DNA of 64,000 nucleotides from a bacterium (GTDB taxonomy: Bacteria; UBA10199; 2-02-FULL-44-16; JAAZCA01): NCBI GenBank assembly GCA_963674695.2, contig CAXXGI010000003.1:192001-256000 (forward strand). The letters are read 5' to 3'. The notes under the pieces were generated by a model. The model saw only the letters and a program-made list of their open reading frames with translations. It did no database searches and was not told where the DNA came from. How positions within the stretch are numbered: the first letter of the stretch is position 1; every line of letters starts with the position of its first letter. Shown here in pieces: positions 4,586 to 62,200 of the stretch. The translations under genes were made by a program, and so were the position numbers.

Positions 4586-4617
4586 TCAGGCCAGTCAGGC
4601 CAGTCAAGCGAGACAGG
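4586..4617. repeat. 9-bp GCCAGTCAR tandem tract just after the polA stop
   Basis: tcaggccagtcaggccagtcaagcgagacagg. Same unit as 7191-7271; inverted copies at 5351-5373. Confidence 0.75.
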
Positions 4618-4638
4618 CAGTGCACACCGCGAGACTGC

Positions 4639-4930
4639 CGACTGCCTGCCGCGACCGCTTTCCCTTCGTCGCAGAAGTGAGACAAAAGCCCGGCAGTGTG
4701 TTTTACGGGGATCGCCGTCTCGGCTCAAACGCCGCCTCGACGGCTTTGCTTCTTCCGTCGCAGCATTAGAGGCTTAGATCGCGACGAAAGAAGATATCCC
4801 CTACAAACACACTGCCGGGCTTTTGTCTTCAAGAGATCTTTATACTCCTCCGGGAAGGGGCAAGGCTCGCGGCGAGTAGGGAGGCGAGCGCTTTCAGCGA
4901 TGAAGGGACGGCGGTTGCAGCAGGCAGTCG
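4639..4930. repeat. Nested-palindrome non-coding element, family A copy 1
   Basis: Imperfect outer inverted repeat 4639-4677/4892-4930 and perfect 24-bp inner inverted repeat 4680-4703/4805-4828. Core is homologous to 27758-27872. Confidence 0.8.
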
Positions 4931-4979
4931 TCCGGATTCCGGTTCGAAGAGGGCGGCGGGGTTGTCGGTGGATGTGCGA

Positions 4980-5375
4980 TCAATGCGGGGTGACGAGGAC
5001 GCTGATCGTTGCGGCGATGGCGGTGGCCAGCAGCCCAAGCCCTATTCCGAGCCCGACCGTTTTCCCGGTGGAAAATTCCTTGTGAGAGATCTCGCTGATC
5101 TGCGTGCGGTCATACCGAAGCCATTGCCCTCGTTCTGACGCATAGACCCACACCGAACTGTCATCGACGCGGAGATGATTGCCGCGGACGGTCGTCTTCG
5201 AGCCGTTTGAGAAGGCGACGACGTAGCGATCCTTTTCGATGGGCTGGATCGGTGCGGCGTTGATGCCGTGCAGGGAGAGGGGTTTTGTCGTCGTGCACGC
5301 GAAGAGGGTGGTAAAAAGGAGCAGGCACGCGAGTATTTGTACGAGAGGTTTCGCCTGACTCGCCTGACTCGCCAT
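4980..5375 (-). CDS. Hypothetical lipoprotein with C-terminal hydrophobic helix
   Basis: LFAC lipobox after a hydrophobic stretch. The N-terminal ASQASQA is encoded by the 9-bp repeat. Confidence 0.6.
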   Translation of the reverse strand: MASQASQAKPLVQILACLLLFTTLFACTTTKPLSLHGINAAPIQPIEKDRYVVAFSNGSKTTVRGNHLRVDDSSVWVYASERGQWLRYDRTQISEISHKEFSTGKTVGLGIGLGLLATAIAATISVLVTPH

Positions 5376-5378
5376 ATT

Positions 5379-6458: not shown

Positions 6459-6514
6459 GGTCAATAGAAACTTCGGACCATAGACCATGGACCATTGACC
6501 ATAGACCATTGACC
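6459..6514. repeat. 7-bp GACCATN tandem tract (5.5 units, 6476-6514) with a short inverted remnant (6459-6467)
   Basis: gaccata gaccatg gaccatt gaccata gaccatt gacc in the divergent intergenic region. Confidence 0.8.
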
Positions 6515-6556: not shown

Positions 6557-7207
6557 ATGGACATCGCAAAAACCATCGATCACACCTTGCTCAAGCCGGA
6601 GGCGACGCCGGAGGCGATCGACCAAATCTGTGCAGAGGCGGCCCAGCATGGGTTTGCTGCCGTCTGTGTCAATCCGGTCTATGTCGCACGCGCGGCGGGA
6701 GCGCTGGCGGGCACAGGGGTTGAAGTGGCCACCGTCGTCGGCTTTCCGCTCGGGGCCAACACCACGAGCATCAAGGCGCGCGAGGCCTGGGAGGCTCTCC
6801 AGCAGGGCGCGACCGAGATCGACATGGTCATAAACGTCGGCCTCTTCAAGGGGGGGCAGCGCAAGGCCGTGGGCGACGAGATCGCCGAGATCGTGCGCGT
6901 GGCGGAGAAATTTCCGGTGAAGGTGATCCTCGAGACGTCACTCCTTTCAGATGAAGAGATCGCCGAAGCATCGACGCTCGCGATGGATGCGGGCGCGGCG
7001 TTCGTGAAGACCTCCACCGGGTTCGGTTCGCGCGGAGCCAGTGTGAATGATGTGCGCATCATGAAGCAGACGGTTGGGGATCGTTGTCAGATCAAGGCCA
7101 GCGGCGGCATTCGCACGCGCGCGGATGCGCTCGCCATGATCGAAGCAGGGGCCTCCCGCATCGGCACGAGCGCAGGTGTGGTGATCGTTGGTGAGTCAAG
7201 CGAGTAA
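6557..7207 (+). CDS. deoC: Deoxyribose-phosphate aldolase
   Basis: IDHTLLKP, VGFPLG, EIDMVIN, FVKTSTGF, IKASGGIR, RIGTS. RBS GGAGG before ATG 6557. Confidence 0.97.
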   Translation: MDIAKTIDHTLLKPEATPEAIDQICAEAAQHGFAAVCVNPVYVARAAGALAGTGVEVATVVGFPLGANTTSIKAREAWEALQQGATEIDMVINVGLFKGGQRKAVGDEIAEIVRVAEKFPVKVILETSLLSDEEIAEASTLAMDAGAAFVKTSTGFGSRGASVNDVRIMKQTVGDRCQIKASGGIRTRADALAMIEAGASRIGTSAGVVIVGESSE

Positions 7208-7318
7208 GGCCAGTCAGGCCAGTCAAGCTAGTCAGGCCAGTCAAGCCAGTCAAGCCAGTCAAGCTAGTCAGGTTGACAGCATTGTTCAAAGTCGTTTGCC
7301 TGACTCGCCTGACTGGCG
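7191..7318. repeat. Inverted microsatellite element: about 9 x GCCAGTCAR (7191-7271), spacer, inverted units (7298-7318)
   Basis: Units read directly. The array overlaps the deoC stop. Confidence 0.9.
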
Positions 7319-9142: not shown

Positions 9143-10624
9143 CTATGGCAATGAATTCCTATACAGGGCTTTCGGAGCGCCGTCGCTATCGTAGCATTGG
9201 CATTCCAGTTCAGTGTTCTTCATGCAATCGCTGCGGCTCTCGATCGTCATGCCGGAACCCATGTCGCTGTTCTGGGGAATTTCGATCTTGAGATTCTGTA
9301 CTCCGATCATGCCTTCTTCCGATACATCTGTTACGTCTGTGAGGACATATGTTCCGAACTTGCGGATGATCTGATAAACCGGGTTGAGATTCTGATACGC
9401 GGCGATGTCAGGAGTGGATTCATCATCATCGTTATAACGGCTCGGCGGGGCGGCGGCCAGATCCCGGATCTGGTTGAAGATGCGCTGTTCAGTGCCTACC
9501 TGAAAATCGCCATTTCCAAAGAGCGACACCATGTAGGGTCTGATATCCGTGGCGGGGTAACAGTATCCCGATCCGTGCTTCACGTTGATCACCGGATCGC
9601 CGATTTCAAGCGGCATGGTGGAGGTGGTCGGGCTGTCCTTGATACTCATATGGTGGGCAGAGATGACGTTGATGGCACTGATTCGATATTGGTAGTGGCA
9701 GGTTTCAGGGCCGCTCGGTGCGACCGCGACCTCCATCGGCCCACAGCAGTCGGGGCATTTTCCGTTTCGCGCTACGATGCCCGATGGCGGGCATTTGTTG
9801 GCGGGGCAGTTTTTATCATGTTCATAGGCGCACTTCTCATTCGTGAAATTTTCTTCGCCGCAATCACGGCAGTTGCCCATTTCGTCGATAAACTGTGTCT
9901 CCAGATTGCACTTGCTGCAGAGTGAGCGTCCATGGCTGATCGGCATCTCCGTTCGATCCTTCGGACAGACGCAGGGTCCGTCTGCACTCTCGCGTGTTGC
10001 CCCCTCGACGCACTGGCATTTTCCCTGTTTCAAGCGGGCCAGCGGATCGGGGGTGCTTGAATTGCTGCTCACCATGCAACTGCAGCGCATGCCTCCGGAA
10101 TGCTGGAAAAATGCATCGCCTTCGCAGCGCGTGCACACACCGGTGTCCTGATCGTATGATGCCGCGTATGGGTCGAACAATCCCGGGCATTCACACAGTC
10201 CGTTCACATTCCGGTCCATGCCATAGGGACAGATGCAGTCATTGTTGATATTGGCAATCGTGTCGGCTCTGTCGTTTTCTCCCGTACATCTGCCGCCGAC
10301 ACAGCAGGCACAGAAGCCGGCTTCGTTCGGGAGGTGAAAACGTCTGCTCGAACCAGGGCAGTCACAGACGCCGTTTTCCTTTGTTGCCCCTCGTGCACAG
10401 ACGCAGCCCCCTTCCGCTTCGTCCAAAATGCCGTCCTTACAGTCGAGTTGGAGTGGCGGGAGTTGCATCTTCTCCATCTTCGTTGGCATTTGTTTTTTGA
10501 CCTCGACTTTTTTCTCCGGCGACTTGAAGAGGCCGAAGAAGTCGAAGGCCTGAGCGGGCGTGGCGAGTGTTGTCAGGAGTAAGAGCAGCAGCAGTGAAAT
10601 GACGACCGAGGAAAAACGTTTCAT
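9143..10624 (-). CDS. Secreted cysteine-rich repeat protein
   Basis: Signal peptide MKRFSS...AQA and repeated CxCxxG...CxCP units. RBS GGAGG before 10624. Confidence 0.8.
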   Translation of the reverse strand: MKRFSSVVISLLLLLLLTTLATPAQAFDFFGLFKSPEKKVEVKKQMPTKMEKMQLPPLQLDCKDGILDEAEGGCVCARGATKENGVCDCPGSSRRFHLPNEAGFCACCVGGRCTGENDRADTIANINNDCICPYGMDRNVNGLCECPGLFDPYAASYDQDTGVCTRCEGDAFFQHSGGMRCSCMVSSNSSTPDPLARLKQGKCQCVEGATRESADGPCVCPKDRTEMPISHGRSLCSKCNLETQFIDEMGNCRDCGEENFTNEKCAYEHDKNCPANKCPPSGIVARNGKCPDCCGPMEVAVAPSGPETCHYQYRISAINVISAHHMSIKDSPTTSTMPLEIGDPVINVKHGSGYCYPATDIRPYMVSLFGNGDFQVGTEQRIFNQIRDLAAAPPSRYNDDDESTPDIAAYQNLNPVYQIIRKFGTYVLTDVTDVSEEGMIGVQNLKIEIPQNSDMGSGMTIESRSDCMKNTELECQCYDSDGAPKALYRNSLP

Positions 10625-10721
10625 GGAGACCTCCCTTGAGGGTGAATCAAGCAAGGCATTATACTAGCAAAATATATGCCATTGGGGGAGTATTTTCGCT
10701 GTCGGGAGGGTGAATAGTGGT

Positions 10722-12059
10722 CTATTTTTCGTCGATAGGAAGGCAATTGGCGAGCGAGAGGCGCCAGAGTGAATATTCACCCCGTTGCTCATCGACGGCG
10801 GAATCGGTGCGAAGGAAGAGCCAGTCGCCGCTGATCGTCATGCCTGTCATCGCCCCAGCAGAAAAGGGCTCTTGGGCATCGAGTGCGCACCATCGCTCAT
10901 CGGAGATTTCGCGGAAATAGAGCGTCGAGGCTTCGGCATCGTGGAGCAAGACGCGCTCGCCATCATCGCTGATTGTGGCAATCGTGGCATCAGTTGGAAG
11001 GGCGTGCCCCGTTGTTTGTTCGGGCTCGTCTGCACTGGAATGGAAGAGCCATCGTGCATCCGCTGATTGCGCGAGAGAAACGATGCGCCCGGTGGGGGCG
11101 ATGACGACCTCCATCGGCGTCATCCCGCTCGGCAGCGGAAGGTCGATAGGGGATCCGCCGGCCGGTAGGAATGAGGCGCTCGTCTGCCCCTGCGTATCCT
11201 CGAGCAATGCAACGCCGTTGCCCTCGTCGTCGAGACATTGTCGAGAGCCAGCGATTGCCGCGCGCGCGTCCGACAGGGTGTGGAGTGCAGGTACCGTTCC
11301 GTCAAAGGAGGAATTCAGGCGTTCGAATCGACCTCGATTGCTTCCCGGGTCTTGGGTGACGACGCCGCCCATCCATGTGAGATCGCGCGATGCACACAGG
11401 GATGTGACACCGATGAGTGCCGCGAGATCGATCGAACCGTACTCGACATGCAGGATGCGCAGCGCAGATTCGCTCCATGTAGGGAGCTGGTAGGCGATGC
11501 GTGCCATCTTGTCGTCCACCGCAGTCTGATGCCAGGGCGCTGCTTGAAAGGAACCCGCAATGAATGCCTCGTGTCCCGTTTGAAGGTCGAGGAAGAAGGC
11601 GCGCGTCTCAATTCCATTGAAAGGGATATATCGTTCCGTTGCAAAGAGGTGTGCTCCCCCCGCGAGTGCACGCAGATCGCTCGTTGCCTTCGGGTCATGA
11701 TCAGCGATGCTATAATAGCGTCTGAGAAGCCGTGCCGGTTTTCGATCGAAGCGGCAGTCGTCGAGACAGCCCACATCCAACGACGCGTCTGTGCTGTAAT
11801 CGCACTCCTCTTCCCCTTCAACGACGCCATCGCCACAGATCGGTTCAGGGCTCTCTCTCGATTCTACAGCACGATCGTCATCGCCGCCCGGAGTGATGAT
11901 CGGAGGAGTATCGTCATCGCCGTCCGCATTCTCCGGATCGCGCTTCGGTTCTGAACCGCCGCAACCCTGGAGCGCGACCGTGCTTCCCGCGAGGACGGTG
12001 AAGAGGGCGATGGTGAGAGCGGTTGTGGTGGTGAAGACGAAACCCAGCATTGTTCTCAT
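10722..12059 (-). CDS. Putative lipoprotein with a myxobacterial disulfide-repeat-like motif and probable beta-propeller region
   Basis: LQGC lipobox, CGDGVVEGEEECD...CLDDC, beta-rich C-terminus, RBS GGAGG. Confidence 0.7.
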   Translation of the reverse strand: MRTMLGFVFTTTTALTIALFTVLAGSTVALQGCGGSEPKRDPENADGDDDTPPIITPGGDDDRAVESRESPEPICGDGVVEGEEECDYSTDASLDVGCLDDCRFDRKPARLLRRYYSIADHDPKATSDLRALAGGAHLFATERYIPFNGIETRAFFLDLQTGHEAFIAGSFQAAPWHQTAVDDKMARIAYQLPTWSESALRILHVEYGSIDLAALIGVTSLCASRDLTWMGGVVTQDPGSNRGRFERLNSSFDGTVPALHTLSDARAAIAGSRQCLDDEGNGVALLEDTQGQTSASFLPAGGSPIDLPLPSGMTPMEVVIAPTGRIVSLAQSADARWLFHSSADEPEQTTGHALPTDATIATISDDGERVLLHDAEASTLYFREISDERWCALDAQEPFSAGAMTGMTISGDWLFLRTDSAVDEQRGEYSLWRLSLANCLPIDEK

Positions 12060-12074
12060 TCCTCCCTTATATTG

Positions 12075-12101
12075 TTATCGACCACGAGGGCGGAAAGTTG
12101 C
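12075..12101 (-). promoter_or_regulatory. Putative sigma28-like promoter
   Basis: Minus strand GCAACTT...GTCGATAA (CAAC-N14), 15 nt upstream of ATG 12059. Confidence 0.55.
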
Positions 12102-12272
12102 GTAAATCATAGCGTCATATTCATATTGCTCTTTCCCTTGTGGTGATTGTTGTGCAGGTTCGAGCACCTCCCTTTCTTTCCCTTCGATGGACATTTCTAC
12201 TATGCGACTGATCCCTATTGACAGTGCGCCATCTCTGCGACGTATAGTGCAGCTAGGGGAGAGGAGGCCGTT

Positions 12273-12926
12273 ATGAGTTCCGATATCACGTCCATGGGTT
12301 CGATCTTCACCACGATCGCTGCGGGGAAATCCGGCGGTCGCGAGATTCGCTACGATTTCTATGTCGAATACGAAGACGGCGGGGTCGACACGGGTCGTTG
12401 GATCGACGTGAATGAAAATGGCAGAGCGGATGCGGGCGATCGCTTCGGCATCGGTTCGGATGCCAATCTCCCGCTCTTTGCGCGCGGGAACAAAAGCTGC
12501 GGTGGGAAGGTCATCGATCCAATATACGTGCGCGCGCTGGCGATGCGGGAATATCGCCCGTTTGAAATGCATCGGATGACCGAGGAAGATGTTTACAGCT
12601 ATGGGTTCTTTCTGGATGAGGTCGCGCCGCGATGGAGTCGACGGTTGAATGAAGTGCGCCAAGAGGCCAAGCGCATCGGCCAGAAGGATTGTAAGATGTC
12701 GTGTGAGAAGGGGGACGCGCCCGGATCGGGGAGGATGAAGCTCAAAACGCGTCCCGGTTTCTGGGCGAAAGAGGCCGGAGCGAGTGAGCCCTTCAGCTAT
12801 GTCGTCAGAAATCCGGGCGAAGAGGATGTGCGCATCGTGGGCGAAGTGAAGCGTTCCGCGCCCGATTACGCCATGCTCATGGGCGCGTTTCAGGCGTGCT
12901 TGAAGGTGATTGCACGTTCCAAGTGA
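12273..12926 (+). CDS. Hypothetical protein, tandem paralog 1 (DxNxNG calcium-loop-like motif)
   Basis: RBS GGAGG; DVNENGRADAGD; aligns along its length with 12954-13619. Confidence 0.8.
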   Translation: MSSDITSMGSIFTTIAAGKSGGREIRYDFYVEYEDGGVDTGRWIDVNENGRADAGDRFGIGSDANLPLFARGNKSCGGKVIDPIYVRALAMREYRPFEMHRMTEEDVYSYGFFLDEVAPRWSRRLNEVRQEAKRIGQKDCKMSCEKGDAPGSGRMKLKTRPGFWAKEAGASEPFSYVVRNPGEEDVRIVGEVKRSAPDYAMLMGAFQACLKVIARSK

Positions 12927-12953
12927 GAAACGATTTCTGTTGAGGAGGTTATC

Positions 12954-13619
12954 ATGGGATTCGAGTCCGAGATCACGGGGATGGGAACGCTCTTTCTCAC
13001 CAGCAACGCGGGTGTGCGCGGCCAGCGCGAACTCGCCGTTGACTTCTATGTCGACTATGAAGATGGCACCGGCGTCGATGCGCGCTGGGTCGATACAAAC
13101 GGAAACGGACGTGTCGATGCGAATGATGCGTTTGGCATGGGGGATCTCTTCGCCCTGAGCAGCTATCAGGAACGGGAAGAACTCTTGTCGTGTCAGGATG
13201 ATTCAAAACGTCGCACCATCTGGTGGGCGGAGAAACTCCAACGGAAGACGTTCTCCGATGCGCCGCCTTTTCCGATGCGTCGCATCACCGCGGCCGAAGT
13301 GAAGCGCTTCGGTTCCTATCTCAATACGACGGCGGGCGCGTGGGCCGGCCGTATCGACCGTATCCATTCGGAAGAGAAGCGTCTCGGCACGCCGGCGGGA
13401 AAGCTCGCGTGCGAGCCGGGTGACGAGATCGGCGCCGGCCGGATGTGGATCAAGGGAACGCGCGTTTTCTGGGCCAAGGAGGAGGGGATGACCGATCCCT
13501 TCAGCCTCGTGCAACACTTCGATACCGATCCCTATTTCCTCGTCAAGGCAACCGTGTCCCCCAAGAGCCCGGACTACACCGTCCTCCGTTCCGCCTTCAC
13601 CGCCTGCCTTGCGCGGTGA
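12954..13619 (+). CDS. Hypothetical protein, tandem paralog 2
   Basis: RBS GGAGG; DTNGNGRVDAND; shares DFYVxYEDG, FWAKExGxxxPFS and PDY with paralog 1. Confidence 0.8.
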   Translation: MGFESEITGMGTLFLTSNAGVRGQRELAVDFYVDYEDGTGVDARWVDTNGNGRVDANDAFGMGDLFALSSYQEREELLSCQDDSKRRTIWWAEKLQRKTFSDAPPFPMRRITAAEVKRFGSYLNTTAGAWAGRIDRIHSEEKRLGTPAGKLACEPGDEIGAGRMWIKGTRVFWAKEEGMTDPFSLVQHFDTDPYFLVKATVSPKSPDYTVLRSAFTACLAR

Positions 13620-13662
13620 TAATACGGTCATGTTGTACTCAGTGACAATCCTACATTGACTC

Positions 13663-13689
13663 GCAACTTTTTCCTCCATCGGCCGATAA
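13663..13689 (+). promoter_or_regulatory. Putative sigma28-like promoter
   Basis: GCAACTT...GCCGATAA (CAAC-N14). GCCGATAA is the canonical FliA -10 element. Confidence 0.6.
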
Positions 13690-13737
13690 TTGAATGAGGG
13701 CCCCGCTACGGGTGTTTCTCTGAGAAAGGATTTCGCT

Positions 13738-14775
13738 ATGGGAACGGTTTGCACGACAGTGGGCTGCGCCAGGCGGCAGTGTTTCAAGCTCGGAGCGAGA
13801 GGCGATGCCAAGCGTGAGACATGTCTCGATGCGCTCAAGGATTGTCGTGAGCAGAAGGGGATTCCTGAGGACTATGCGCAGTGTCTGCAGGATGTCCTTG
13901 CGGGACGCCGTTCTCCGTCGCGGAAGAAGGTGGATGAGACCAAGGATCATGAGCCGCAGACGGAAGAGAAAAAGAGACCGAAGAAGAAGAAAAAGAAGAA
14001 AGTTGAACCCACTGCTTCCAAGCCCATCGATGAGGTGCCGCAGAAAAAGAAATCGAAAAAGAAGAAGTCAGGAAAGATGAAGGTCGAGGAACTGCTCATG
14101 GCGCCGCTCTGGGCCCATGCAAAGGTGGTCATCGGTGGTCGCGTGCGGTATTGTTCTCGGAGTGTCACCTTCGACGCGAAACGCGTCGACGATCGGCATG
14201 GTCCGTACGAGGTGGATGACTTGGCTGAAAATGCCATCAAGCATCAGAAACTCATTCCGATCTGTCGAAAGCCAAAATCCTTGAAGCCGGCCATTTTGAC
14301 GCGCTCCGAGGCCGATCGATTGGTTCGTCTCCTGCAGAAGACGCTCGATAAAAAATGCCGCTGGGTATCGGACATGGTTGATGATGCAACGCAGATGTCC
14401 CGGGAGGATTTCCAGATCCGGTTTTCGCCGAACAAACGATACAAACCCATCGAGATGGGGTTCTTCGGCGGCGACCTCAAGGACTTCGCGGATTGCTACA
14501 ACGACGGCGATTGTCTGGATGCCTCAGTTCGCATCATGCTGGGCGATGATGCCCAGATCGTTCTCGGATACCACGCTGCCAACGGCGCGAGCGAATTGAT
14601 GGAGCAGATGAGCGTGGAGCGCTTTAGGGAAAAGTTGGAGGACTCCTTTGGCGGAATTCACAGCGGGCATGAGTTGGATCTCGTCTTCTCGGATGGGGAA
14701 CAAACATTTATCATCGTGGACCATCCCTTTCATCAGATGGATGACTGGCCCGGCAATCTCCTTCGCCCGAAGTAG
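13738..14775 (+). CDS. Hypothetical protein with N-terminal Cys module and Lys-rich tract
   Basis: ATG 13738 after AAGGA; C-x13-C-x6-C; KKRPKKKKKKKV; no signal peptide. Confidence 0.7.
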   Translation: MGTVCTTVGCARRQCFKLGARGDAKRETCLDALKDCREQKGIPEDYAQCLQDVLAGRRSPSRKKVDETKDHEPQTEEKKRPKKKKKKKVEPTASKPIDEVPQKKKSKKKKSGKMKVEELLMAPLWAHAKVVIGGRVRYCSRSVTFDAKRVDDRHGPYEVDDLAENAIKHQKLIPICRKPKSLKPAILTRSEADRLVRLLQKTLDKKCRWVSDMVDDATQMSREDFQIRFSPNKRYKPIEMGFFGGDLKDFADCYNDGDCLDASVRIMLGDDAQIVLGYHAANGASELMEQMSVERFREKLEDSFGGIHSGHELDLVFSDGEQTFIIVDHPFHQMDDWPGNLLRPK

Positions 14776-14875
14776 CTTCCGTTCGGAAAATGAATCTTCC
14801 CCTTGTTATCGCATCGTCGTCGATTGCCTTGAAAAATGGGCTGGCACATCGAAGGATGTTTCTTTGTCTCTCGTC

Positions 14876-15112
14876 ATCTGTCCCCTTGAGTTCCCCCTGT
14901 TGCGATTCATCGTGAAACGAGCCGTTTTGGCCTGCGAAGAATCGCTGCTTTAGGCCGGAGGCCTAAATTCCGAACGATGTCTGAGCCCGCCAAAAAATAG
15001 AATGAAGTTTTTTATCCTTCGGGCGAGTTCGTGAGGAAAAGCGGTTCGAGACAGATGCCAAAACGTGTGAGTGGAGCGCAGAACGCAACAGGGGGAACTC
15101 AAGGGGACAGAT
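14876..15112. repeat. Structured palindromic non-coding element, family B copy 1
   Basis: Perfect 29-bp terminal inverted repeat (14876-14904/15084-15112). Interior is homologous to 28014-28250. Confidence 0.85.
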
Positions 15113-15126
15113 TCTCCTGGGGCTCT

Positions 15127-15996: not shown

Positions 15997-16184
15997 ATTA
16001 TTCAGGAATATCGCGTTCTCCTCAATAGATAAATGGGGAGAGAGGAGCTTTTCGCGTCTCCGTTTGTCTTCGGATTCCGGTTCCCGATTTCCCGATCGTG
16101 ATCCGTTGTTTCGCACATGGTTCAGGATGAGGTAAAATATCTTGTAACACCTCGATATAATTAGAGAATAAATGAGCGGTTGCC

Positions 16185-16213: not shown

Positions 16214-16244
16214 TAAGGGGGAGGCAGTATATCCGTGAAAAGGG

Positions 16245-42239: not shown

Positions 42240-42247
42240 AAAAAATT

Positions 42248-50802: not shown

Positions 50803-52104
50803 ATGAAGGTGCTCATCATCGGAGGCGGAGGCCGCGAGCATGCGCTGGCCTGGAAGGTCACACAGTCACCGCAGGTGACCGAGGTCTTCTGTGCGCCGGG
50901 AAATCCCGGTATCGCCGAGATCGCGACCTGCGTGCCGATCAAGGCCGATGATGTGCAAGCGTTGGTCGATTTCGCCAAGCGCGAGCGCATCGATCTGACC
51001 ATCGTGGGACCCGAGCTTCCCCTCACCCTGGGCATCGTCGATTCCTTCAAACGCGTCGGGCTTGCTGCCTTCGGTCCATCGCGCGAGGCGGCGGTACTCG
51101 AGGGGTCGAAGGTCTTCACGAAGGAATTCTGCAAACGCTATGGAATCCCCGCAGCGCAGTCCGAGACCTTTACGGATGCGCAGCAGGCGTTGGCCTTCAT
51201 TCAGGATCAGACCTATCCGCTGGTGATCAAGGCCGATGGCCTGGCCGCGGGGAAGGGGGCGGTGATCTGTCATACCGCCGAGGAGGCGCAGGAGACCATC
51301 GATGCGATGCTCGTGCGCAATCTCTTCGGAACCGCGAGCGAGCGGATCATCATCGAGGAATTCCTTCAGGGGGAAGAGGCCAGCTTCATTGCGATCTGCG
51401 ATGGCAACCACGTTCTGCCGCTGGCTAGTTCTCAGGATCATAAAGCGGCCTACGATGGCGACGCCGGTCCCAATACGGGCGGCATGGGGGCGATCTCGCC
51501 GGCACGTCTCATGACGCCGGAGCTCACCGAGCAGGTCATGGAACGCATCATGCTCCCCACCGCGCATGGGATGGTGACCGAGGGGATGCCGTTTGTCGGT
51601 GTGCTCTATGCAGGACTCATGATCAAGGATGGCCAGGTTCGCGTCCTCGAGTTCAATGTTCGCTTCGGCGATCCGGAGACGCAGCCGCTCCTCATGCGTT
51701 TGCAGACCGACCTCATCGAGATCGTGCAGGCCACGCTCTCCGGGACGCTCGATCGCGTGCGCCTGGCATGGGATCCTCGGCCGGCGATCTGCGTCGTGAT
51801 GGCATCGGGCGGATACCCCGGGTCCTATGAGAAGGGCAAGGCGATCACGGGGCTTGCGGAAGCGGCGGGGCAGGAGGGGGTGCAGGTCTTTCATGCCGGC
51901 ACCGCCAGTGAGAATGATCGCGTGGTGACGTCCGGCGGTCGCGTTCTGGGCGTCACCGCGATAGGCGATGACATGGCCGATGCGATCGAGCAGGCCTACA
52001 ATGTGGTCGATATGATCCACTGGGATGGCGTGCATTTTCGGAAGGATATTGGGCATAAGGCCCTTGAAGGGTGTAATGCCAAAATCCAAAATCCAAATGT
52101 CTAA
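50803..52104 (+). CDS. purD: Phosphoribosylamine-glycine ligase
   Basis: IGGGGREHAL, KADGLAAGKG, GPNTGGMGA, EFNVRFGDPE, SGGRVL. Confidence 0.98.
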   Translation: MKVLIIGGGGREHALAWKVTQSPQVTEVFCAPGNPGIAEIATCVPIKADDVQALVDFAKRERIDLTIVGPELPLTLGIVDSFKRVGLAAFGPSREAAVLEGSKVFTKEFCKRYGIPAAQSETFTDAQQALAFIQDQTYPLVIKADGLAAGKGAVICHTAEEAQETIDAMLVRNLFGTASERIIIEEFLQGEEASFIAICDGNHVLPLASSQDHKAAYDGDAGPNTGGMGAISPARLMTPELTEQVMERIMLPTAHGMVTEGMPFVGVLYAGLMIKDGQVRVLEFNVRFGDPETQPLLMRLQTDLIEIVQATLSGTLDRVRLAWDPRPAICVVMASGGYPGSYEKGKAITGLAEAAGQEGVQVFHAGTASENDRVVTSGGRVLGVTAIGDDMADAIEQAYNVVDMIHWDGVHFRKDIGHKALEGCNAKIQNPNV

Positions 52105-52168
52105 AAGGATCTTCGGCATTGGGATTTGGAATTTGTTTCGATATTTGGATTTTGAGGTTTGGATTTGA
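52078..52168. repeat. Inverted microsatellite element, 7-bp AAATCCA/TTTGGAT unit
   Basis: Left arm aaaatccaaaatccaaatg supplies the PurD C-terminus; right arm tttggaatttg...tttggattttgaggtttggatttg. Confidence 0.8.
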
Positions 52169-52178
52169 GGAGGGTTTT

Positions 52179-52676
52179 ATGACGGATGCAAAGGTACTCA
52201 TCGTGATGGGGAGTGCGAGTGACAAGGCGGTGATGGAGGATGCGGCCAAGGTGCTCGCTGAACTTGGTATTTCGGCACGCATGACGATCGCTTCAGCCCA
52301 TCGCACGCCCGATCGGGCCACAGCGCTCGCGCGCGATGCCCGGGGCCAGGGCGTGAAGGTCATCATCGCCGGCGCCGGATATGCTGCACACTTGGGCGGC
52401 GTGCTGGCGGCGCACACGACGTTGCCGGTCATCGGCGTGCCCTTGGATGCTTCATCGCTGAAGGGATTGGATTCACTCCTGGCGACCGTGCAAATGCCCT
52501 CCGGCATTCCGGTCGCGACGGTCACAATCGGAAAATCGGGCGCGCGCAACGCAGGGATCCTTGCGGCGCAGATGCTGGCGATCTCGGATGACGCCCTGGC
52601 AAAAAAACTCGAGGCGTTTCGAGCGGCGATGACCGCAAAGGTCGATGCGGCGGATGCCGAATTGCAGTCGACGTAA
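52179..52676 (+). CDS. purE: N5-CAIR mutase
   Basis: IVMGSASD, SAHRTP, AGAGYAAHLGG, PVIGVP, QMPSGIPVATV. Confidence 0.97.
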   Translation: MTDAKVLIVMGSASDKAVMEDAAKVLAELGISARMTIASAHRTPDRATALARDARGQGVKVIIAGAGYAAHLGGVLAAHTTLPVIGVPLDASSLKGLDSLLATVQMPSGIPVATVTIGKSGARNAGILAAQMLAISDDALAKKLEAFRAAMTAKVDAADAELQST

Positions 52677-52760
52677 CTCGTTACTCGTCATTCGTGACTC
52701 GTCGGGTCACGATTCACCGGTTGAACGAGACTACGATCTCACGATTCACGAGACCACGAG
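52672..52760. repeat. Inverted microsatellite element (CTCGTYA arm, then CACGAKW arm)
   Basis: cgtaactcgttactcgtcattcgtgactcg...tcacgattcacgagaccacgag; contains the purE stop. Confidence 0.7.
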
Positions 52761-53532: not shown

Positions 53533-53700
53533 TCAGGGAAGTCTCCCGATCCGATTGTATGCCGCCCGTAGAATCGCCTTATTCTCCTCCTGTACCTTGG
53601 CCGGAATCAGGGAGAAGTCACTGGCCAGATCTAGCGCCGCTGCCACCTCCGCGATGGACCCCATCGAGATCTGAAAGCATTTCTGCTGTATTTTTTCACG
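53533..53700 (-). pseudogene. C-terminal remnant of a four-helix-bundle (IVP/bAvd-like) protein gene; not in the ORF track
   Basis: Manual translation FQISMGSIAEVAAALDLASDFSLIPAKVQEENKAILRAAYNRIGRLP*. Aligns with 53973-54176. Confidence 0.7.
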
Positions 53701-53701
53701 A

Positions 53702-53769
53702 TGTCATTCCCGAGTGACGTAATCGGGAATCTCGCTCCAATCGAGATCCCCGCTTTCGCGGGGATGACA
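53702..53769. repeat. REP/dRS3-like paired palindrome, copy 7
   Basis: tgtcattcccgag...tcgggaatc...gcggggatgaca. Confidence 0.8.
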
Positions 53770-53929
53770 AAGCTCGAAACAGAACCTTTCTGATGATGAT
53801 TCTGATGCCGATGGTGATTGAATCCGATCATTCGTTTTCCGTTTCGGCTTATCGGTTATCCCAATCCGTTCTCCAAATCGATAAATCTCGATGATCTCTG
53901 AGCGATGATGTTGAAAAGCGGTCAAAGGC

Positions 53930-53958
53930 GACCACTACGAAGGCCGTTCGTAGTGGTC
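53930..53958. repeat. Perfect 12-bp stem palindrome with GTAG motif
   Basis: gaccactacgaa-ggccg-ttcgtagtggtc. Confidence 0.75.
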
Positions 53959-53972
53959 AGATTTTACCACTT

Positions 53973-54176
53973 TTGCGCATCAACTTGGCTGAGGGCAATG
54001 CACGGATGGGCGCGGGGGAACGCAAGCGCTTCTTTCAGATCTCAAGGGCATCGTTAGCGGAGGTATCGGCCTGCATTGATCTGGCCAGTGTCTTCTCCCT
54101 GATTCCGGCACGATGTGTCATGGAGAACAAGGAGCGAGCGGATAGGATCAGTCGAATGCTCTACCGACTCAGGTGA
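53973..54176 (+). pseudogene. C-terminal remnant of a four-helix-bundle (IVP/bAvd-like) protein gene
   Basis: NLAEGNAR...ERKRFFQISRASLAEV...IDLA...ISRMLYRL. N-terminal half absent; in-frame stop at 53892. Confidence 0.75.
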
Positions 54177-58304: not shown

Positions 58305-58433
58305 GAGAGAGCGCAATCCGTGTGCAGGATGTTGCTCCGGGGTGGTCGTAATGGTTCCCCGCGAGGTGCCTCTTATGTACGATGCTCTTCGTTCTTTGGC
58401 AAGGACGGTGTTGTTCGCGAACGCGTATGAGCG

Positions 58434-59141
58434 TTACTCGCCATGGTTGGGGTTGGAATAGCCGGTCCCATTGGAACAGTGAATTTCCTTCCAATCGGTG
58501 AGGGTTGTTTCACATCCCCAGTATTGACCTCCGCCCGAAGAATAGGAAGAGATGTGTGTTCCGTCAGGGGACGCGTATCGCTCGTGGCTGATCTCTCGCG
58601 TCGTATTGCTTTTGTTGTCTGAATACTCAGCTCCGATGATGGTGTGGTCGCCTTGTTCAGCATTGCAGACAGCCTGAGTGATCTTCTCTTTGAGTGTCGT
58701 TCGGTTTCTTTCACATCCTTCGCCATAGACGAGGCTCCATCCGTATCTCTCGAAGGGCTTGCCCCCGATTCGACTGTACTTCTTGATGGCCTGGAGTATG
58801 TGCGGTGGTGCAGGGGGGAGTGAGGGCGTTTTTCTCGATCGCTTTTTTTTCGGTTTCTTTTTTGCTGTTTTCTTCGGGATTGGTTTTTTTCTTCCGTTGA
58901 CGCGTATCGCATCGATCGCCTTTTTCGTTTTTGCCGCCCGCAGTATGCGCACGACCCATTGGGCGCAGGACTTTTTCGTTTTTTTCGGTAGAGGGCTGGT
59001 GAGGGTTGAAGACGTTATGTTGAGGGGTCTCTTCTTGTCCGTGTTGCATACACCGACTCGTTCCACACAAGCATTGAAATGATCGGGTCCCTTCTTGTTC
59101 AGGGGAAGGCATATTTTTCTGGCATCTATTCTCATTGCCAT
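58434..59141 (-). CDS. Hypothetical basic protein with N-terminal Cys module
   Basis: RBS GAGGAG; C-x13-C-x6-C; KKKPKKKRSRK; no signal peptide. Confidence 0.7.
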   Translation of the reverse strand: MAMRIDARKICLPLNKKGPDHFNACVERVGVCNTDKKRPLNITSSTLTSPLPKKTKKSCAQWVVRILRAAKTKKAIDAIRVNGRKKPIPKKTAKKKPKKKRSRKTPSLPPAPPHILQAIKKYSRIGGKPFERYGWSLVYGEGCERNRTTLKEKITQAVCNAEQGDHTIIGAEYSDNKSNTTREISHERYASPDGTHISSYSSGGGQYWGCETTLTDWKEIHCSNGTGYSNPNHGE

Positions 59142-59210
59142 CTTCTCCTCCTCGTCGCGCAGATAGGCCCATGTGTTTTGTTCCCCTTCGTCAGAAGGGT
59201 CTCTCTATGA

Positions 59211-59236
59211 TTATCGGAAATGATTGCGAGAAGTTG
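59211..59236 (-). promoter_or_regulatory. Putative sigma28-like promoter
   Basis: Minus strand CAACTT...TCCGATAA (CAAC-N14), about 70 nt upstream of ATG 59141. Confidence 0.55.
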
Positions 59237-59270
59237 TTTGATTAATGTTCAAGATCGCCGGATAGAATGA

Positions 59271-62200
59271 TCATGATTTCTGTCCGCTCTTGAGTCGATC
59301 CTCCCAACATATCCCATTGTGATGATAGGCGCAGTTCTGGCACGGGGGCTGCGTTTCTTTTTTCTGCTCAAAGGCGTGCGCCTCGATGCACTGCATGGTC
59401 TCCCGGATGCGTGCGAGACCGTCGGTGCGGCGCGCGTCGGTCATCTCGATGCGGTGGACGATCTGGGGTTTGAGGAAGGTGAGCGTGGTTGCAGAAATCC
59501 TCTTCCCGGTCGCCGCTTCCGCGGCCAAGGCATAACAGATGAGCTGGAGATCATAGGTCTGCGCGCGCTCCTCCACCTGATCTGCATCGACGCGGTCGGT
59601 CTTGAAGTCGATCACCTCGAAGCCGTCTCCATCGGGTTTGAGCCAATCGATGCTGCCGATGATCGTCGCCGCATCGATGCGCCACTCGAAGGGGAGCTCA
59701 TGCGCGCCCTCACGCAGTTCATGGAGGAGGGGGATCTTGAGGGCGTGTTCGATTTCACGCTGAACCGCCCGCAGCGTTTGTTGCGTCGGGTCGGCGCCGC
59801 TTCTCAAACACCCCGTGCGGATCTGGTCGGTGAGGCTCTGGAGGTCACTCGGATCGAGTCCATCGAGGACGCCGTGAACGATCGAGCCCAGGACGTTGGC
59901 CGGCAGCTCTCCGTCGCCCTCTCGGAAGATGCCGGTGGCGGGCAGTCCCAGCACATATTTCAGTTCATACTCACGCGGACAGCGCTCGAAACACTCGAGC
60001 TGGCTGACGGTGTACACGTGGCGAGAAACGAGAGGCGAAGGGCGAAGGGTGAAGGGCGACAAAGCGCCGAGGGGTGAAACATCGATTGTGTTTTGAGGGA
60101 TGTTGCGCCCCTCGTCCTTCGCCCCAGCGAGTGGAGCGAGCGATCGCCCTTCGTGTGTCGGTATGTCCATCTGCACAACGACGGGTTCGAGCCACTTGTG
60201 CCACGGTCCCGAGCGCGAGATGCCCTCGTGAATTGGCAGGAGCAGGAGCTCCATCGCGCGGGTCATGGCGACATAGAGCAGGCGTTTCGATTCTGCTTCG
60301 TCCTCGGTCCGTTCATGATCGCGAAGGGCGCTGTAGCGATCCGTCTCCACGCGGGGTCCGAAGGGCTGATCCGGATCCTTTTGTTTGAAGGCGATGCCCT
60401 CCTGACGGACGAATTGCCAGCGCCCTCCCGTGTTATGTCCCCCCCGGAAGAGGTCGGGAAGGATCACGACCGGAAACTCGAGCCCCTTGGCGGCGTGTAC
60501 GGTCATGAGCCGAACCGCGCCGCTGGCATCGCCCGCGGCGGGGGCATTTCCCAGACGCGCGCTGCGCTCCTTGAGTTCGCGCACGAATCCGGCAAAGGCG
60601 CCGAGCGGGGTCGGCGTCTCGCGTTCGATCGATTCGGCCAGCGCCAGAAAACGATCGATATTGGCCGTCATGCCGCCGGAGGTATCGAGGGCATGGCAGA
60701 TCAGCTCGTATCCCGTTCGATCCAGGACCCTTCGGATGATCTCGGAGGGGCGCAGATGTCGACCCATCTCCTGCAGATCGTTCAGGAGGCCGCAGCGTTC
60801 ATCGATGCGTGCTGCCTCGACGAGTGAGTCCCCCCGTGGCCCGGCAAAACGCACCAGGTCGTCGTCGGAAAGACCGATGAGGGGAGAGCGGACAAGGCCC
60901 AGCAGGGCGATCTCGTTTTCCGGGTCGGCGGCATATTCCAAGCAGAGCAGCAGGTCGACGATCTCCTGCCGGGCGAGCAGCCCGCGTCCGCCGAAGACGC
61001 GATAGGGGATTCCGGCTTGTTGCAGCGCGTTTTCATAGGCGACGATGTCGGTGAGCGCTTGAAAGAGACAGACGATATCGCCGAGCTCGAAACGATCGCT
61101 GCTCGTCAGCGCCGTGATCGTCTGTGCGATGGCCTCGGCCTCGGCTATGCGGCGCTCGGCGGCGCTGGTCTTGGCGTCGGTGCTGACGATGGGAATGCGC
61201 GCGACCGAGGGCAATGCGCCGTCGTCATCGCGAGCGGCGATCATGTTTTCACTCGCGGCGCTCACGCCGTCTTGGGCCAACTGTTCGAAGAGTCCGTCCG
61301 AGAGATTCTCCTGGCAGTGATTGACGAAGGTGATGATGCCCGGTCGCGAACGGAAGTTCTCCGCCAGGTGGATGGTCTCGCCCCCATGGGCGCGGATGCG
61401 TTCGAGTGTCTGGGCGAAGCAGCCGACGTTGGCGCCGCGGAAGCGATAGATCGACTGGCGCGGATCGCCTACGATGCAGAGGCGGTTTCGTTTGGGGTCG
61501 AAGAGTTTCAGGACGAGCAGCGTCTGTAAGTCGTTGGTGTCCTGAAATTCGTCGACGAGCAGGTGCGAAAACCGTCGCTGATAGAGCTCGCATATCGAAG
61601 GGTGTTCGGTCAGCAGTCGAAGGGCTTGGATTTCGAGGGCCTGAAAGTCGAGGGCATCCATGCGCGCGAATTGTGCTGAGAGGTGGGTGCAGGCAAGGGT
61701 GAAGGCGGCGCCCAGTGCGGAGAGGAGTGCGGCTTCTTCCGCTGCTGCGGGCTGCTCGAAGATGCGCTGTGCATGCCACCGAAACTGCATCAGCTCTTCG
61801 AGGGCTCCAGTCACCGTTCGGAAATCGAGGGCATCGACGAGCAGAGCGGTGGGGGCATCATCCTGTTCGAGAAGGGTCATCAGTGTGTGGTGCACCGCCT
61901 GGCGCGCGACGAGACCCGCCGCGTTTTCATCGAGGATGCCGAAGGAGGGGTCGAGCCCCAGTACGGGGGTATGGGCGCGGATGATGCGGGCACAGAAGGC
62001 GTGGAAGGTGCCGATCCAGGCCTCTTCGATGCGATGGTGTTGTTCGGCCGGAATGCGACGGCGCAGACGTGCCTTGAGCTCTCCGGCCGCTTTCTCCGTG
62101 AACGTGATGGCGAGGAGACGATCGAGTGCGCCCCAATCATCCTCGATGATGTGCAGGCATCGCTCGATGAGCACGGTGGTTTTGCCCGAACCGGCTCCGG

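Follow-up and report, generated by a model that had tools for sequence, protein, structure and literature searches.

The tandem-repeat tracts dispersed through the window, by which we mean the whole 64,000-nucleotide stretch of DNA analysed here, probably belong to a genome-wide population of hairpins of the type found as intervening sequences (IVSs) in rRNA, the full form of which carries a small four-helix-bundle gene (PF05635/TIGR02436, the S23p or Avd-like family) in its loop. Most copies here lack the gene and survive as hairpins or as one remaining arm. The stem arms are tandem arrays of one 7–9-base unit and its complement. Here we demonstrate this architecture, its association with the gene across lineages and its occurrence in the organism's own 23S rRNA; we also show that the repeat units are related and that the arms have a fixed handedness. 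Intergenic heptamer repeats and rRNA inserts, two long-unexplained features of bacterial genomes, would thereby be linked, and we found no paper tying the heptamer hairpins of S23p genes to intergenic heptamer repeats. The original prediction had called the system undescribed; that holds only for this link, as inverted heptamer pairs and gene-bearing IVSs are already in print.

Hairpin tracts in the window

Array coordinates were obtained with Tandem Repeats Finder, which places arrays at 4586, 5351, 6476, 7194, 21146, 22475–22647, 22926–23018, 34130, 35465, 36640, 37746–37917, 38931/39127, 41189–41239, 42061–42231, 52079/52144, 52672/52733 and 60034; the tracts at 26122 and 37470 are degenerate and were read from the printed sequence. 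Every tract named in the original prediction is present at its stated place. Short-read contigs (three public runs from one study) match 34057–38002 and 39013–44447 without a single difference, which rules out an assembly artefact in this record. The features are as follows.

4586–4650: CAGGCCAGT-type 9-mer array plus a short inverted arm, weak hairpin (z −1.3), 5 nt past the polA stop (4579–4581)
5351–5373: 9-mer single arm, TCGCCTGAC × 2.6, unit reversed relative to 4586 and 7194
6476–6514: single arm of 5.6 GACCATN heptamers (z −1.1), in the spacer from which an FHA gene and deoC diverge
7194–7315: 9-mer hairpin, AGTCARGCC × 8.6 then GCCTGACTS × 2 (z −5.3); deoC stop (7205–7207) within the 5′ arm
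21146–21171: TCACGAG heptamer single arm, 9 nt upstream of the purB start
22475–22647: long octamer hairpin, GTGAGATG/GCTNAATG, 71 pairs (dG −93.6, z −9.5); first unit holds the purB stop (22476–22478); purS start at 22677
22919–23018: hairpin of TCGTGAGA/ACGAGACC units (z −6.2), flanked by the purS stop (22914–22916) and purQ start (23026)
26122–26200: degenerate AAGGGYG tract, two small hairpins (z −2.1), beginning in the purL stop codon (26122–26124)
34085–34161: GACTCGG and TTCGCCC heptamer arrays, in frame in the 3′ part of the thiC call; no hairpin (z +1.6)
35421–35519: (GTT)n then TTCGCCC/TTCACCC single arm, unpaired, lying between the thiC start and the upstream radical-SAM gene's stop
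36640–36662: single arm of CGAGTCA heptamers that overlaps the thiG stop (36644–36646, minus strand)
37470–37520: degenerate GCGCCCTTC tract, lying between the thiG start and the thiS stop
37746–37917: long hairpin of GTGAGAT/GCTAAAT units, 59 pairs (z −9.1); thiS start (37732) on one side, TPP riboswitch and terminator (37925–38061, minus strand) on the other
38931–39152: CGTTACT and TTACGAG arms with 180 nt between (z −5.9); palindromic MITE-like element in the loop (about 38968–39092); right arm contains the MBL-hydrolase stop (39134–39136, minus strand)
41189–41239: CCATCTCA-type 8/16-mer single arm (z −1.0), from the alr stop (41188–41190) to near the mlaE start (41257)
42061–42231: long hairpin of GTGAGATG/GCTNAATG units, 66 pairs (z −9.0); first unit holds the mlaE stop (42061–42063); mlaF start at 42248
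44371–44391: single arm of 2.6 GGTTCGAT octamers, 4 nt past the mlaD stop; a truncated four-helix-bundle gene (C3:541190-541473) is flanked by arms of this unit family
52079–52170: AAATCCA/TTTGGAT hairpin (z −2.1); purD stop (52102–52104) inside, purE start at 52179; its unit family recurs in the 23S rRNA insert at model position 1218
52672–52760: CGTAACT/CGTGACT arm and ACGAGAC arm (z −1.8); first unit holds the purE stop (52674–52676); Sua5/TsaC gene start at 52762
53533–54164: remnants of two divergent four-helix-bundle genes, separated by a palindromic MITE-like element; C-terminal fragments at 53533–53664 (minus strand) and 53982–54164 (plus strand, 39.3 bits to PF05635)
60034–60125: GGCGAAG/CCTTCGCC hairpin (z −5.4), in frame in the linker of an addA-like helicase-nuclease gene (59271–62273, minus strand)

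When 18 window tracts were folded, seven gave long hairpins (z ≤ −5), three reached z of about −2 and eight were single arms; the largest hairpins have 59–71 pairs and z of about −9. As predicted, tracts contain or abut the upstream stop codon at all seven genes for which this had been claimed (deoC, purB, thiG, MBL hydrolase, mlaE, purD and purE), and the remnants at 53.5–54.2 kb are genuine PF05635 fragments. The more general placement at gene ends fails for 34130–34161 (thiC call) and 60034–60125 (addA-like gene), both of which lie inside gene calls. The proposed absence of tracts from the orphan block is weakly visible in the window, with arrays in 0/7 spacers there and 11/34 elsewhere (Fisher p = 0.16), and genome-wide the trend is clear, genes of typical codon usage having adjoining arrays more often. 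The neighbours of the window tracts show no evident functional class.

Genome-wide arrays and inserts in 23S rRNA

The genome holds 322 intergenic arrays of 7–9-base units. Although the coding fraction is 86% by our gene calls, most arrays of period 7 (243/348) and period 8 (101/176) lie outside these calls, against 14/163 and 20/227 for the control periods 6 and 12. An inverted array of the same unit lies within 250 bp of 123 of the 322, and a direct one of 14; when the unit of a random other array was used as a control, the counts were 7 and 15, in agreement with the inverted layout originally described. In a crude test that speaks against a general excess of hairpins, 32% of 110 random array clusters (with 30-nt margins) and 31% of 110 array-free intergenic segments folded with z < −2. 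The elements occupy transcribed spacers, which separate cistrons or tRNA genes or form the tips of two hairpins in the 23S rRNA. A tRNA gene is likewise flanked by inverted arms, and hairpin loops also house unrelated MITE-like elements. Gaps of 5 nt or less separate arrays from stop codons in 32% of cases and from start codons in 11%, and in many co-directional spacers the arrays end 5–20 nt before the start codon.

The original prediction recognized one architecture with many unit sequences, which is indeed common to the set, but took the units for at least six unrelated families. A network of single substitutions and indels instead joins 88 of 107 unit types, accounting for 288 of the 322 arrays, whereas the largest component in 30 shuffles had a mean of 23 and a maximum of 46; only the 9-mers (GCCAGTCAR) are set apart. 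A composite 16-mer of GTGAGATG plus GCTNAATG was found at at least 11 loci, the units TCGTGAC and GACCATN reappear in further genera of this family and this order, and GACCATN forms inverted pairs in the relative G013. The arms also have a fixed handedness, in that the first arm on either strand is G-rich and carries stop triplets. Stop triplets are richer in the 5′ arm of 43/60 pairs and in the 3′ arm of 3/60, with 14 ties (p = 4.6e-10), and G exceeds C in the 5′ arm of 41 pairs, with 10 opposite (51 and 10 around gene-bearing elements).

The 23S rRNA gene (C3:920299-923476) contains two hairpin inserts, neither with an ORF, which are built from the same unit families as the intergenic arrays. 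One, of 89 nt at model position about 285, has AGTTGAA-type arms; the other, of about 146 nt, has AAATCCW arms and occupies the hairpin loop at model position 1218, which we take to be helix 45, the site of the Coxiella IVS.

A four-helix-bundle gene between inverted arms

The full form proposed in the original prediction, with a four-helix-bundle gene, is found at all four solitary PF05635/TIGR02436 loci of the genome, each between inverted tandem arms (flank scores 39, 63, 27 and 36); by comparison, 20/635 small genes (3%) reach a flank score of at least 26. The gene at C2:239995-240309 has arms of the GTGAGATGG/GCTNAATG family, as do the window elements at 22475, 37746 and 42061, and the truncated gene at C3:541190-541473, flanked by GGTTCGAT arms, is a decayed intermediate. 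The proteins match TIGR02436 and, weakly, NF033474; they also match PDB 2GSC (XCC0516 of Xanthomonas campestris), their closest solved structure. The sample of 72 loci covered relatives and two further lineages, and took in Bacteroidales as well as another deltaproteobacterial genome. Inverted arms enclose the gene at 63 of them (35/41 in this class, 9/9 in G097 and 19/22 in Bacteroidales); the direct orientation reaches the score in 14/72, and windows moved by 600 nt do so in 0/42.

In the two closest gene pairs, sequence comparison indicates that gene and arms move together. Over 434 nt spanning gene and arms, L095 shares 81.6% identity with L096, and their flanks have no similarity by blastn or tblastx; L210 and L226 encode 95% identical proteins and have the same 16-mer arms. 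Arm similarity falls to background once protein identity is below about 65%, so that co-inheritance of the two is shown for these pairs only. The mobility envisaged originally finds its evidence in two close pairs with shared arms, with unrelated flanks seen for one. Tracts are not fixed in all relatives, because presence at the purB 3′ junction varies between them. Across 12 genomes, in small samples, array density did not track the number of four-helix-bundle genes: G013 has 11 arrays per 100 kb and no PF05635 match, and G052, with 35 matches, shows 1 array in 76 kb. Array distribution is patchy even inside G000. As other small elements also occupy hairpin loops, the gene may be a secondary guest.

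Origin of the elements and comparison with known systems

In the RNA, the arms would pair into a long double-stranded stem. The stop-rich 5′ arm would end translation of the upstream gene ahead of the stem, and in any frame, as the units are of a length not divisible by three. RNase III, the gene for which is present in the genome, might then cleave the stem, as published for rRNA IVSs, and the insert would thereby be parted from the host transcript with its neighbours unharmed. Replication slippage could lengthen or shorten the arms, and a tandem-repeat stem would remain able to pair afterwards; perfect arrays of about 21–25 heptamers facing short degenerate arms are consistent with such slippage. 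New copies likely arise by some form of spreading, given the composite unit family at its many loci. Among 11 elements of one unit family we saw neither target-site duplications nor colinear copies, and the genome's four Y1-transposase-like genes have no flanking arrays of this kind.

It is unlikely that the arrays are local microsatellites, made by polymerase slippage with inverted partners from intrastrand template switching (quasipalindrome correction), with no spreading and no tie to the four-helix-bundle gene, which, like the MITE-like palindromes, would simply land or survive in harmless hairpin loops. Such a local origin suits the lack of target-site duplications, the unrelated elements in loops, the arrays of G013, perfect arrays of about 21–25 heptamers seen opposite short degenerate arms, which suggest ongoing expansion, and arms of one element that lengthen independently of each other; in many bacteria, moreover, no long simple repeats are described as more common than heptamers, for which slippage was the proposed cause (Mrazek 2007, as summarised in PMC4679880). 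It does not predict the shared 16-mer, however, and is opposed by units far more related across loci than shuffled ones, by the return of some units in other genera and by gene-enclosing arms in three lineages, shared between close gene copies; the fixed handedness, moreover, requires selection or a directional process.

Binding sites of a global regulator or RNA-binding protein (S1, Csp or CsrA-like) that tunes the neighbouring genes, with an incidental hairpin layout, are a very improbable reading, although such sites have been suggested both in Beggiatoaceae, for TAACTGA repeats (PMC4679880), and in Geobacter metallireducens, for paired heptamer sites (PMC2700814), and the spacing before start codons and preference for genes of typical codon usage agree with it. 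The 107 unit types exceed what one protein could fit, no shared function is apparent among the neighbours in the window, and start regulation makes no sense in 23S rRNA, between tRNAs or in frame within genes. A repeat-writing system, as named in the original prediction, is very improbable; it would require a templated or reiterative polymerase that adds units to the 3′ ends flanking a DNA break, or to an inserting cassette, and we found no evidence for a repeat-writing enzyme. PF05635 resembles Avd, the partner of diversity-generating-retroelement reverse transcriptases (PMC10053308), and the weak NF033474 match is in keeping with this, so the protein might help; one unit common to both arms and the G-rich arm first on both strands would fit 3′-end addition. 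Against this, stop codons contain no C, so that selection for stops in the first arm alone yields G over C, the units vary by locus and thus exclude a fixed template, and the genome's single reverse transcriptase locus is apparently split in two and far from any four-helix-bundle gene.

Hairpins of IVS type, our preferred reading, can be set beside several known repeats. Like REP/BIME elements and MITEs, they are small extragenic palindromes in operon spacers, often directly past stops, with gene-less copies far outnumbering gene-bearing ones; they differ in their tandem-array arms, a unit order unique to each copy and no target-site duplications seen. Cyanobacterial STRR heptamers are intergenic tandem repeats. 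TAACTGA repeats (Beggiatoaceae, Cyanobacteria and Bacteroidetes) are likewise intergenic tandem heptamers near start or stop codons in scattered phyla, with 169 direct sets and one indirect in the Beggiatoa genome (PMC4679880). STRR, long simple repeats and TAACTGA are all described as direct repeats, each with a single or very few units and no link to a gene family. In Geobacter metallireducens, elements of four or five tandem heptanucleotides occupy 49 and 16 sites between or within genes, and class 3 sites are drawn looping onto the other strand, hence as pairs, as here; they have few unit types, are read as regulator sites or regulatory RNAs, and the accessible text mentions no gene-bearing form (PMC2700814).

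The inverted GGGAATC pairs of X. campestris and X. axonopodis pv. citri (Rehm et al. 2015, PMC4692102) are intergenic heptamers with the G-rich array first and 70–75 convergent-array pairs forming potential stem-loops. Repeat length varies across species, but an array that is single or paired in one remains so in the other. Theirs is one unit family as against about 100 here; the arrays are read as G-quadruplex motifs, and the accessible text reports no mobile-element association and does not mention 23S or intervening sequences (PMC4692102).

The closest known system is the 23S rRNA IVS, since two hairpins of these units, both without a gene, lie in the organism's own 23S rRNA. IVSs with or without an S23p/PF05635 ORF are described from Coxiella burnetii, Leptospira and Salmonella (PMC4990558). 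They share with the elements here a long stem from inverted ends, the four-helix-bundle ORF in the loop of the full form, and the existence of ORF-less forms. In the helix 45 IVS of Coxiella, the S23p ORF is preceded by three tandem heptamers whose number varies by strain, which parallels the arms here, and RNase III cleaves at the first repeat (PMC4990558). For rRNA IVSs, published work shows that RNase III excises the insert; for the present elements this would apply by analogy. The elements described here differ in lying nearly all outside rRNA, in protein-gene spacers, tRNA spacers and in frame within genes, and in their abundance, with hundreds of copies and about 100 types of unit.

Tandem arrays in the window and across the genome

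The window corresponds to C3:192001–256000 of a 3.03-Mb genome (G000) that is assembled in three contigs (C1, C2 and C3) and has a G+C content of 58.6%. Among named relatives, the nearest is an uncultured 'Myxococcales' MAG (PurB identity 73%); the relatives compared here all belong to other genera, with PurB at most 73% identical. Rough gene calls and Pfam matches give, in order, polA, an FHA gene, deoC, a punA-like gene, hemC and a block without Pfam matches (9.1–21.0 kb), followed by purB-purS-purQ-purL-purF, thiC-thiH-like-thiG-thiS behind a TPP riboswitch, and then a ZIP transporter gene, an MBL hydrolase gene, alr, mlaE-mlaF-mlaD, purH, purD-purE and a Sua5 gene, among others. Wherever the original prediction had placed a repeat tract, Tandem Repeats Finder reported arrays of 7-, 8- or 9-base units or, for the degenerate tracts, the units were visible in the sequence. 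These tracts are not artefacts of the assembly, because Logan contigs from three public runs of one study, probably its source, reproduce the tract-bearing regions 34057–38002 and 39013–44447 with zero differences; the contigs of these runs are identical and reveal no array polymorphism among themselves.

All seven genes said to end in or against a tract do so by coordinates. The elements thereby supply stop codons and C termini of housekeeping genes (deoC, purB, mlaE, purD and purE), which matters for annotation, as does the presence of some elements in frame within genes.

Tracts and associated features in the window (window coordinates)
7205–7207: stop codon of deoC, inside a 9-mer array
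22476–22478: stop codon of purB, a TGA within the first GTGAGATG unit
34130–34161: heptamer array in frame within thiC
37925–38061, minus strand: TPP riboswitch with its own terminator, followed by a 170-nt heptamer/octamer hairpin and then thiS
60034–60125: whole hairpin in frame in an addA-like gene (59271–62273), within the linker that joins the UvrD_C and PD-(D/E)XK domains

Located between the TPP riboswitch and thiS, the 170-nt hairpin is part of a regulated 5′ leader.

Although 86% of the whole genome is coding, 243 of 348 arrays with period 7 and 101 of 176 with period 8 are mainly intergenic, against 14 of 163 and 20 of 227 for periods 6 and 12. Tandem units of about 7 nt are thus enriched outside genes, as in the heptamer simple sequence repeats (STRR/LSSR); STRRs are intergenic heptamer repeats. 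We analysed 322 intergenic arrays with a period of 7–9 and at least 2.5 copies. Within 250 bp, 123 of these have an inverted partner of the same unit and 14 a direct partner; when the unit is instead taken at random from a different array, the numbers are 7 inverted and 15 direct. The inverted layout is therefore genuine and unit-specific. This partner test replaced a crude fold-versus-shuffle test, in which 110 random clusters were no more structured than intergenic DNA elsewhere. Among the 18 window tracts, 7 fold with z ≤ −5 into long stems of up to 71 pairs, like the inverted ends of 23S rRNA intervening sequences (IVSs), and 8 are single arms.

Arrays favour gene ends: of the gaps to a neighbouring stop codon, 32% do not exceed 5 nt and 16% are overlaps with the gene end, compared with 11% and 2% for starts. 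They occur in 22% of co-directional, 17% of convergent and 12% of divergent spacers, and their distribution is patchy (index of dispersion 3.2 in 50-kb bins). Next to genes whose codon usage is typical, arrays are 2.7 times commoner (present in 19% of top-quartile and 7% of bottom-quartile spacers; Mann–Whitney p 1e-10). This trend is in line with the earlier remark that the tracts avoid the orphan block, but within the window itself the absence (0/7 versus 11/34 spacers) is not significant (p 0.16). The block (9143–20993) comprises seven genes, none with a Pfam match and one encoding a protein of 1566 residues; its codon-usage scores are low and none of its seven spacers holds a heptamer array.

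The tracts had been ascribed to unrelated unit families. Instead, 88 of 107 unit types, representing 288 of the 322 arrays, are connected into one network by steps of a single substitution or indel, whereas the largest component in 30 shuffles has a mean of 23 and a maximum of 46; only 9-mers stand apart from the single-step network. The tetramers TCGT/ACGA occur in 25 of the 107 unit types (7.0 expected) and GTGA/TCAC in 24 (6.5 expected). The tracts, their stop codons and their inverted layout thus stand as first described, but the unit families are related and two tracts lie inside genes.

As the original prediction anticipated, an orthologous junction differs between relatives. At the 3′ end of purB, an array lies within 60 nt of the stop codon in 4 of 11 family genomes (G000, G001, G007 and G008), each with a different unit, and the other seven have no array there; there is therefore gain or loss of sites over time. 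Four loci (C1:123855–124095, C1:562132–562329, C3:17800–17997 and C2:573109–573254) hold perfect arrays of about 13 to 25 heptamer copies (TTCACCG, GGTGAAC and GTGAACC) that face short degenerate inverted arms, and are likely to be hypervariable.

Four-helix-bundle genes between inverted arms

The genome has 19 matches to PF05635, the four-helix-bundle family also known as S23p, at 12 loci. An array cluster lies within 600 nt of 8 of the 12, compared with 25% of random intergenic positions. All four solitary PF05635 genes lie between inverted tandem arms, so that, as in an IVS, the S23p reading frame occupies the loop of the full form. The unit differs at each locus. The flank score, a measure of inverted tandem arms around a gene, is given for each.

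Solitary four-helix-bundle genes and their arms
C2:124100: CGTGAAR/CGTATCT-type arms; flank score 39
C2:239995: GTGAGATGG/GCTCAATR arms, the family of window 22475, 37746 and 42061; flank score 63
C1:748913: between tRNA genes, GTGGGAA arms; flank score 27
C3:541268: truncated gene, a decayed intermediate, with arms of GGTTCGAT (unit family as at window 44371); flank score 36

Only 20 of 635 small genes reach a flank score of at least 26, and the other high-scoring ones that were inspected have a complete hairpin on each side, or REP-like palindromes, and none is borne in a loop. The proteins match TIGR02436 at 85.6–120.3 bits (cut-off 24), and the C2:124100 protein, used as query, matches PDB 2GSC, which is XCC0516 of Xanthomonas campestris.

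Inverted arms likewise enclose 35 of the 41 solitary genes sampled from this bacterial class, all 9 from a further deltaproteobacterial genome (G097) and 19 of 22 from Bacteroidales, with a different unit at each locus. Together, 63 of 72 loci have inverted arms; the direct orientation reaches the score at 14 of 72, and windows shifted by 600 nt at 0 of 42. With 4 of 4 loci here and 63 of 72 overall, these counts support the central proposal of the original prediction, that the tracts are empty forms of an element bearing a four-helix-bundle gene. The remaining PF05635 genes of the genome are arranged as divergent pairs, and the only PF05635 content of the window is a decayed pair of this kind (fragments 53533–53664 and 53982–54164). 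Divergent pairs with a central hairpin were noted at C3:919080–919787 and at six more loci, one pair being directly downstream of a 5S rRNA gene.

Recent copies bear on whether gene and arms move together. In two congeneric genomes (G079 and G023), copies are 81.6% identical over 434 nt covering gene and arms, with proteins 88.6% identical by tblastx (0.91 in global alignment); their flanks have no similarity by blastn or tblastx, and the downstream genes differ. Two loci 12 kb apart in genome G126 share 16-mer arms and encode proteins that are 95% identical. Across 63 loci, arm similarity is weakly correlated with protein identity (Mantel r 0.14, reached by 1 of 2000 permutations), and arms fall to background similarity when protein identity is below about 65%. 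In recent copies the arms thus travel with the gene, and they change much faster than the protein.

Two genomes argue against an obligatory link between gene and arrays: G013 has inverted GACCATN arrays and zero PF05635 matches, and G052 has 35 PF05635 matches and few arrays in the 76 kb sampled. In samples of 53–100 kb from 12 genomes, array density showed no correlation with the number of four-helix-bundle genes; given the patchy distribution seen within G000 itself, samples of this size are too small to decide the matter. Each divergent pair of G052 has short AATC-type arrays after the stop codon of the gene that was sampled.

A second repeat family consists of palindromic MITE/REP-like elements with ends GTCATYCCCG...CGGGRATGAC (window 38968–39092 and 53690–53775; C3:710880–711000; C1:380350–380460). 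They often lie in the loops of heptamer hairpins, as at window 38968–39092, which likewise argues against an obligatory tie of gene to arms, or between the remnants of the four-helix-bundle pair.

Handedness, proposed mechanism and alternatives

Because an inverted pair reads alike on either strand, arm order is intrinsic to the element. Among 60 G000 pairs, stop triplets are more numerous in the first-arm unit in 43, in the second-arm unit in 3 and equal in 14 (p 4.6e-10), and G exceeds C in the first arm in 41 versus 10. Gene-bearing elements of all three lineages share this handedness, with G exceeding C in the first arm in 51 versus 10 and more stops there in 35 versus 16. With a period of 7 or 8 and a stop in the unit, all frames are closed within three units, and upstream genes therefore end in the first units. 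This suggests that ribosomes are stopped by the first arm before they melt the stem.

Our data demonstrate the anatomy and distribution of these elements, their links to four-helix-bundle genes and rRNA, and their handedness. As to mechanism, we propose that the arms pair in RNA, the stems predicted in the window comprising 59–71 pairs with z about −9. By analogy with the IVSs of rRNA, RNase III, for which the genome has one gene, may cut the stem, and a first arm rich in stops would shield it from ribosomes. The arms would grow and shrink by slippage, as perfect arrays of about 21–25 copies facing short degenerate arms hint. A stem of tandem repeats tolerates such length changes because any unit pairs with any complementary unit.

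Several known element types could produce hairpins at gene ends. Intrinsic terminators combine a GC-rich stem with a T run, but none of the 18 terminator-like sites in 21–41 kb (15.2 expected) coincides with an array, and the only convincing terminator there belongs to the riboswitch (37925–37946). MITE copies are colinear, keep their ends conserved and carry target-site duplications. Among 11 GTGAGATG-family elements, unit order and loop differ and duplicated flanks are absent by eye, and in an all-against-all BLAST of the array clusters similarity ends at the array borders. A REP/RAYT system would pair such hairpins with a Y1 transposase; the four Y1-transposase-like PF01797 genes, open frames of 244–276 amino acids at C3:157637, C1:749741, C3:279738 and C3:474227, all lack flanking heptamer arrays and strong inverted repeats. 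A distance of 500 nt separates one of them from the C1:748913 four-helix-bundle gene.

The likeness of PF05635 proteins to Avd raises a diversity-generating retroelement, in which Avd is a partner of the reverse transcriptase and the two genes are neighbours, accompanied by template and variable repeats. The sole reverse-transcriptase locus (C2:707298–707929) is far from all 12 four-helix-bundle loci, and the match to the Avd model, at 23.8 bits, is well below its cut-off of 80. The suggestion of a repeat-writing system finds no support either, given this lack of linkage. The matches at this locus, the only ones in the genome, form two adjacent pieces, possibly through a frameshift, beside G/C-rich palindromes. 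We think it improbable, though worth stating, that the hairpins belong to a new transposase-less mobile element, in which a ring-shaped four-helix-bundle protein recognises the periodic arms and arms are written onto the 3′ ends of insertion sites. If true, this would account for the shared unit in both arms, the G-rich arm coming first on either strand and the locus-specific units, and gene-less hairpins, rRNA intervening sequences and the bacterial 'heptamer excess' would be its footprints.

23S rRNA inserts and relation to known intervening sequences

The single 23S rRNA gene (C3:920299–923476, minus strand) is 3178 nt long, compared with 2925 model positions, and carries two inserts, neither with an open reading frame.

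Inserts in the 23S rRNA gene
C3:923103–923191: 89 nt, replaces a 4-nt loop at model position ~285; hairpin of AGTTGAA/AGTTTAA units and their complement
C3:922020–922165: ~146 nt, within the loop of a hairpin at model position 1218; AAATCCW units forming a hairpin, the unit family also seen at window 52079

The classical IVS sites are helix 25 or 45, and model position 1218 is presumably in helix 45. The window tracts themselves lie in mRNA spacers, and elements of the same units lie in the 23S gene. AGTTGAA-family hairpins also occur between tRNA genes. In the tRNA gene cluster C3:876906–877540, heptamer hairpins separate tRNA genes, and one tRNA gene is enclosed by inverted CACTTCC/AGTGAAA-type arms in an arrangement that resembles a processing stalk.

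For some 30 years, three phenomena have lacked an explanation: the surplus of heptamer repeats between genes in scattered bacterial lineages, the fragmentation of 23S rRNA by intervening sequences, and the widespread four-helix-bundle (S23p, Avd-like) proteins. Our analysis shows that in this genome they are forms of one element, present as hairpins with a gene, as a decayed intermediate and as empty hairpins, hundreds of them in operon spacers and others in the 23S rRNA with the same unit families. A single element makes RNase III cutting in mRNA, binding of the protein to its own arms and first-arm shielding from ribosomes testable.

Parts of this picture are published. Accounts of intergenic heptamer repeats include long simple sequence repeats and TAACTGA repeats (passages of PMC4679880), GGGAATC inverted pairs in Xanthomonas (passages of PMC4692102) and heptanucleotide sites in pairs in Geobacter (passages of PMC2700814), and the literature treats PF05635 as an uncharacterised protein of IVSs, related to Avd (in portions of 10.1101/2024.02.27.582315 and PMC10053308). 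We found no published link between intergenic heptamer hairpins and PF05635 genes in a search confined to main texts and thin on subscription journals. Genes next to the repeats are listed in the supplements that accompany PMC4692102 and PMC2700814. For this genome, our contributions are the unit network, the handedness, the 23S inserts without reading frames from intergenic unit families, and the decayed intermediate.

The closest known system is the IVS of Coxiella, which lies in helix 45 and has an S23p reading frame preceded by three tandem heptamers, in numbers that vary between strains; it is excised by RNase III with a cut at the first repeat, and its origin and function are called unclear (Warrier et al., PMC4990558, in part). 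The elements described here share the construction of an IVS, but lie mostly outside rRNA.
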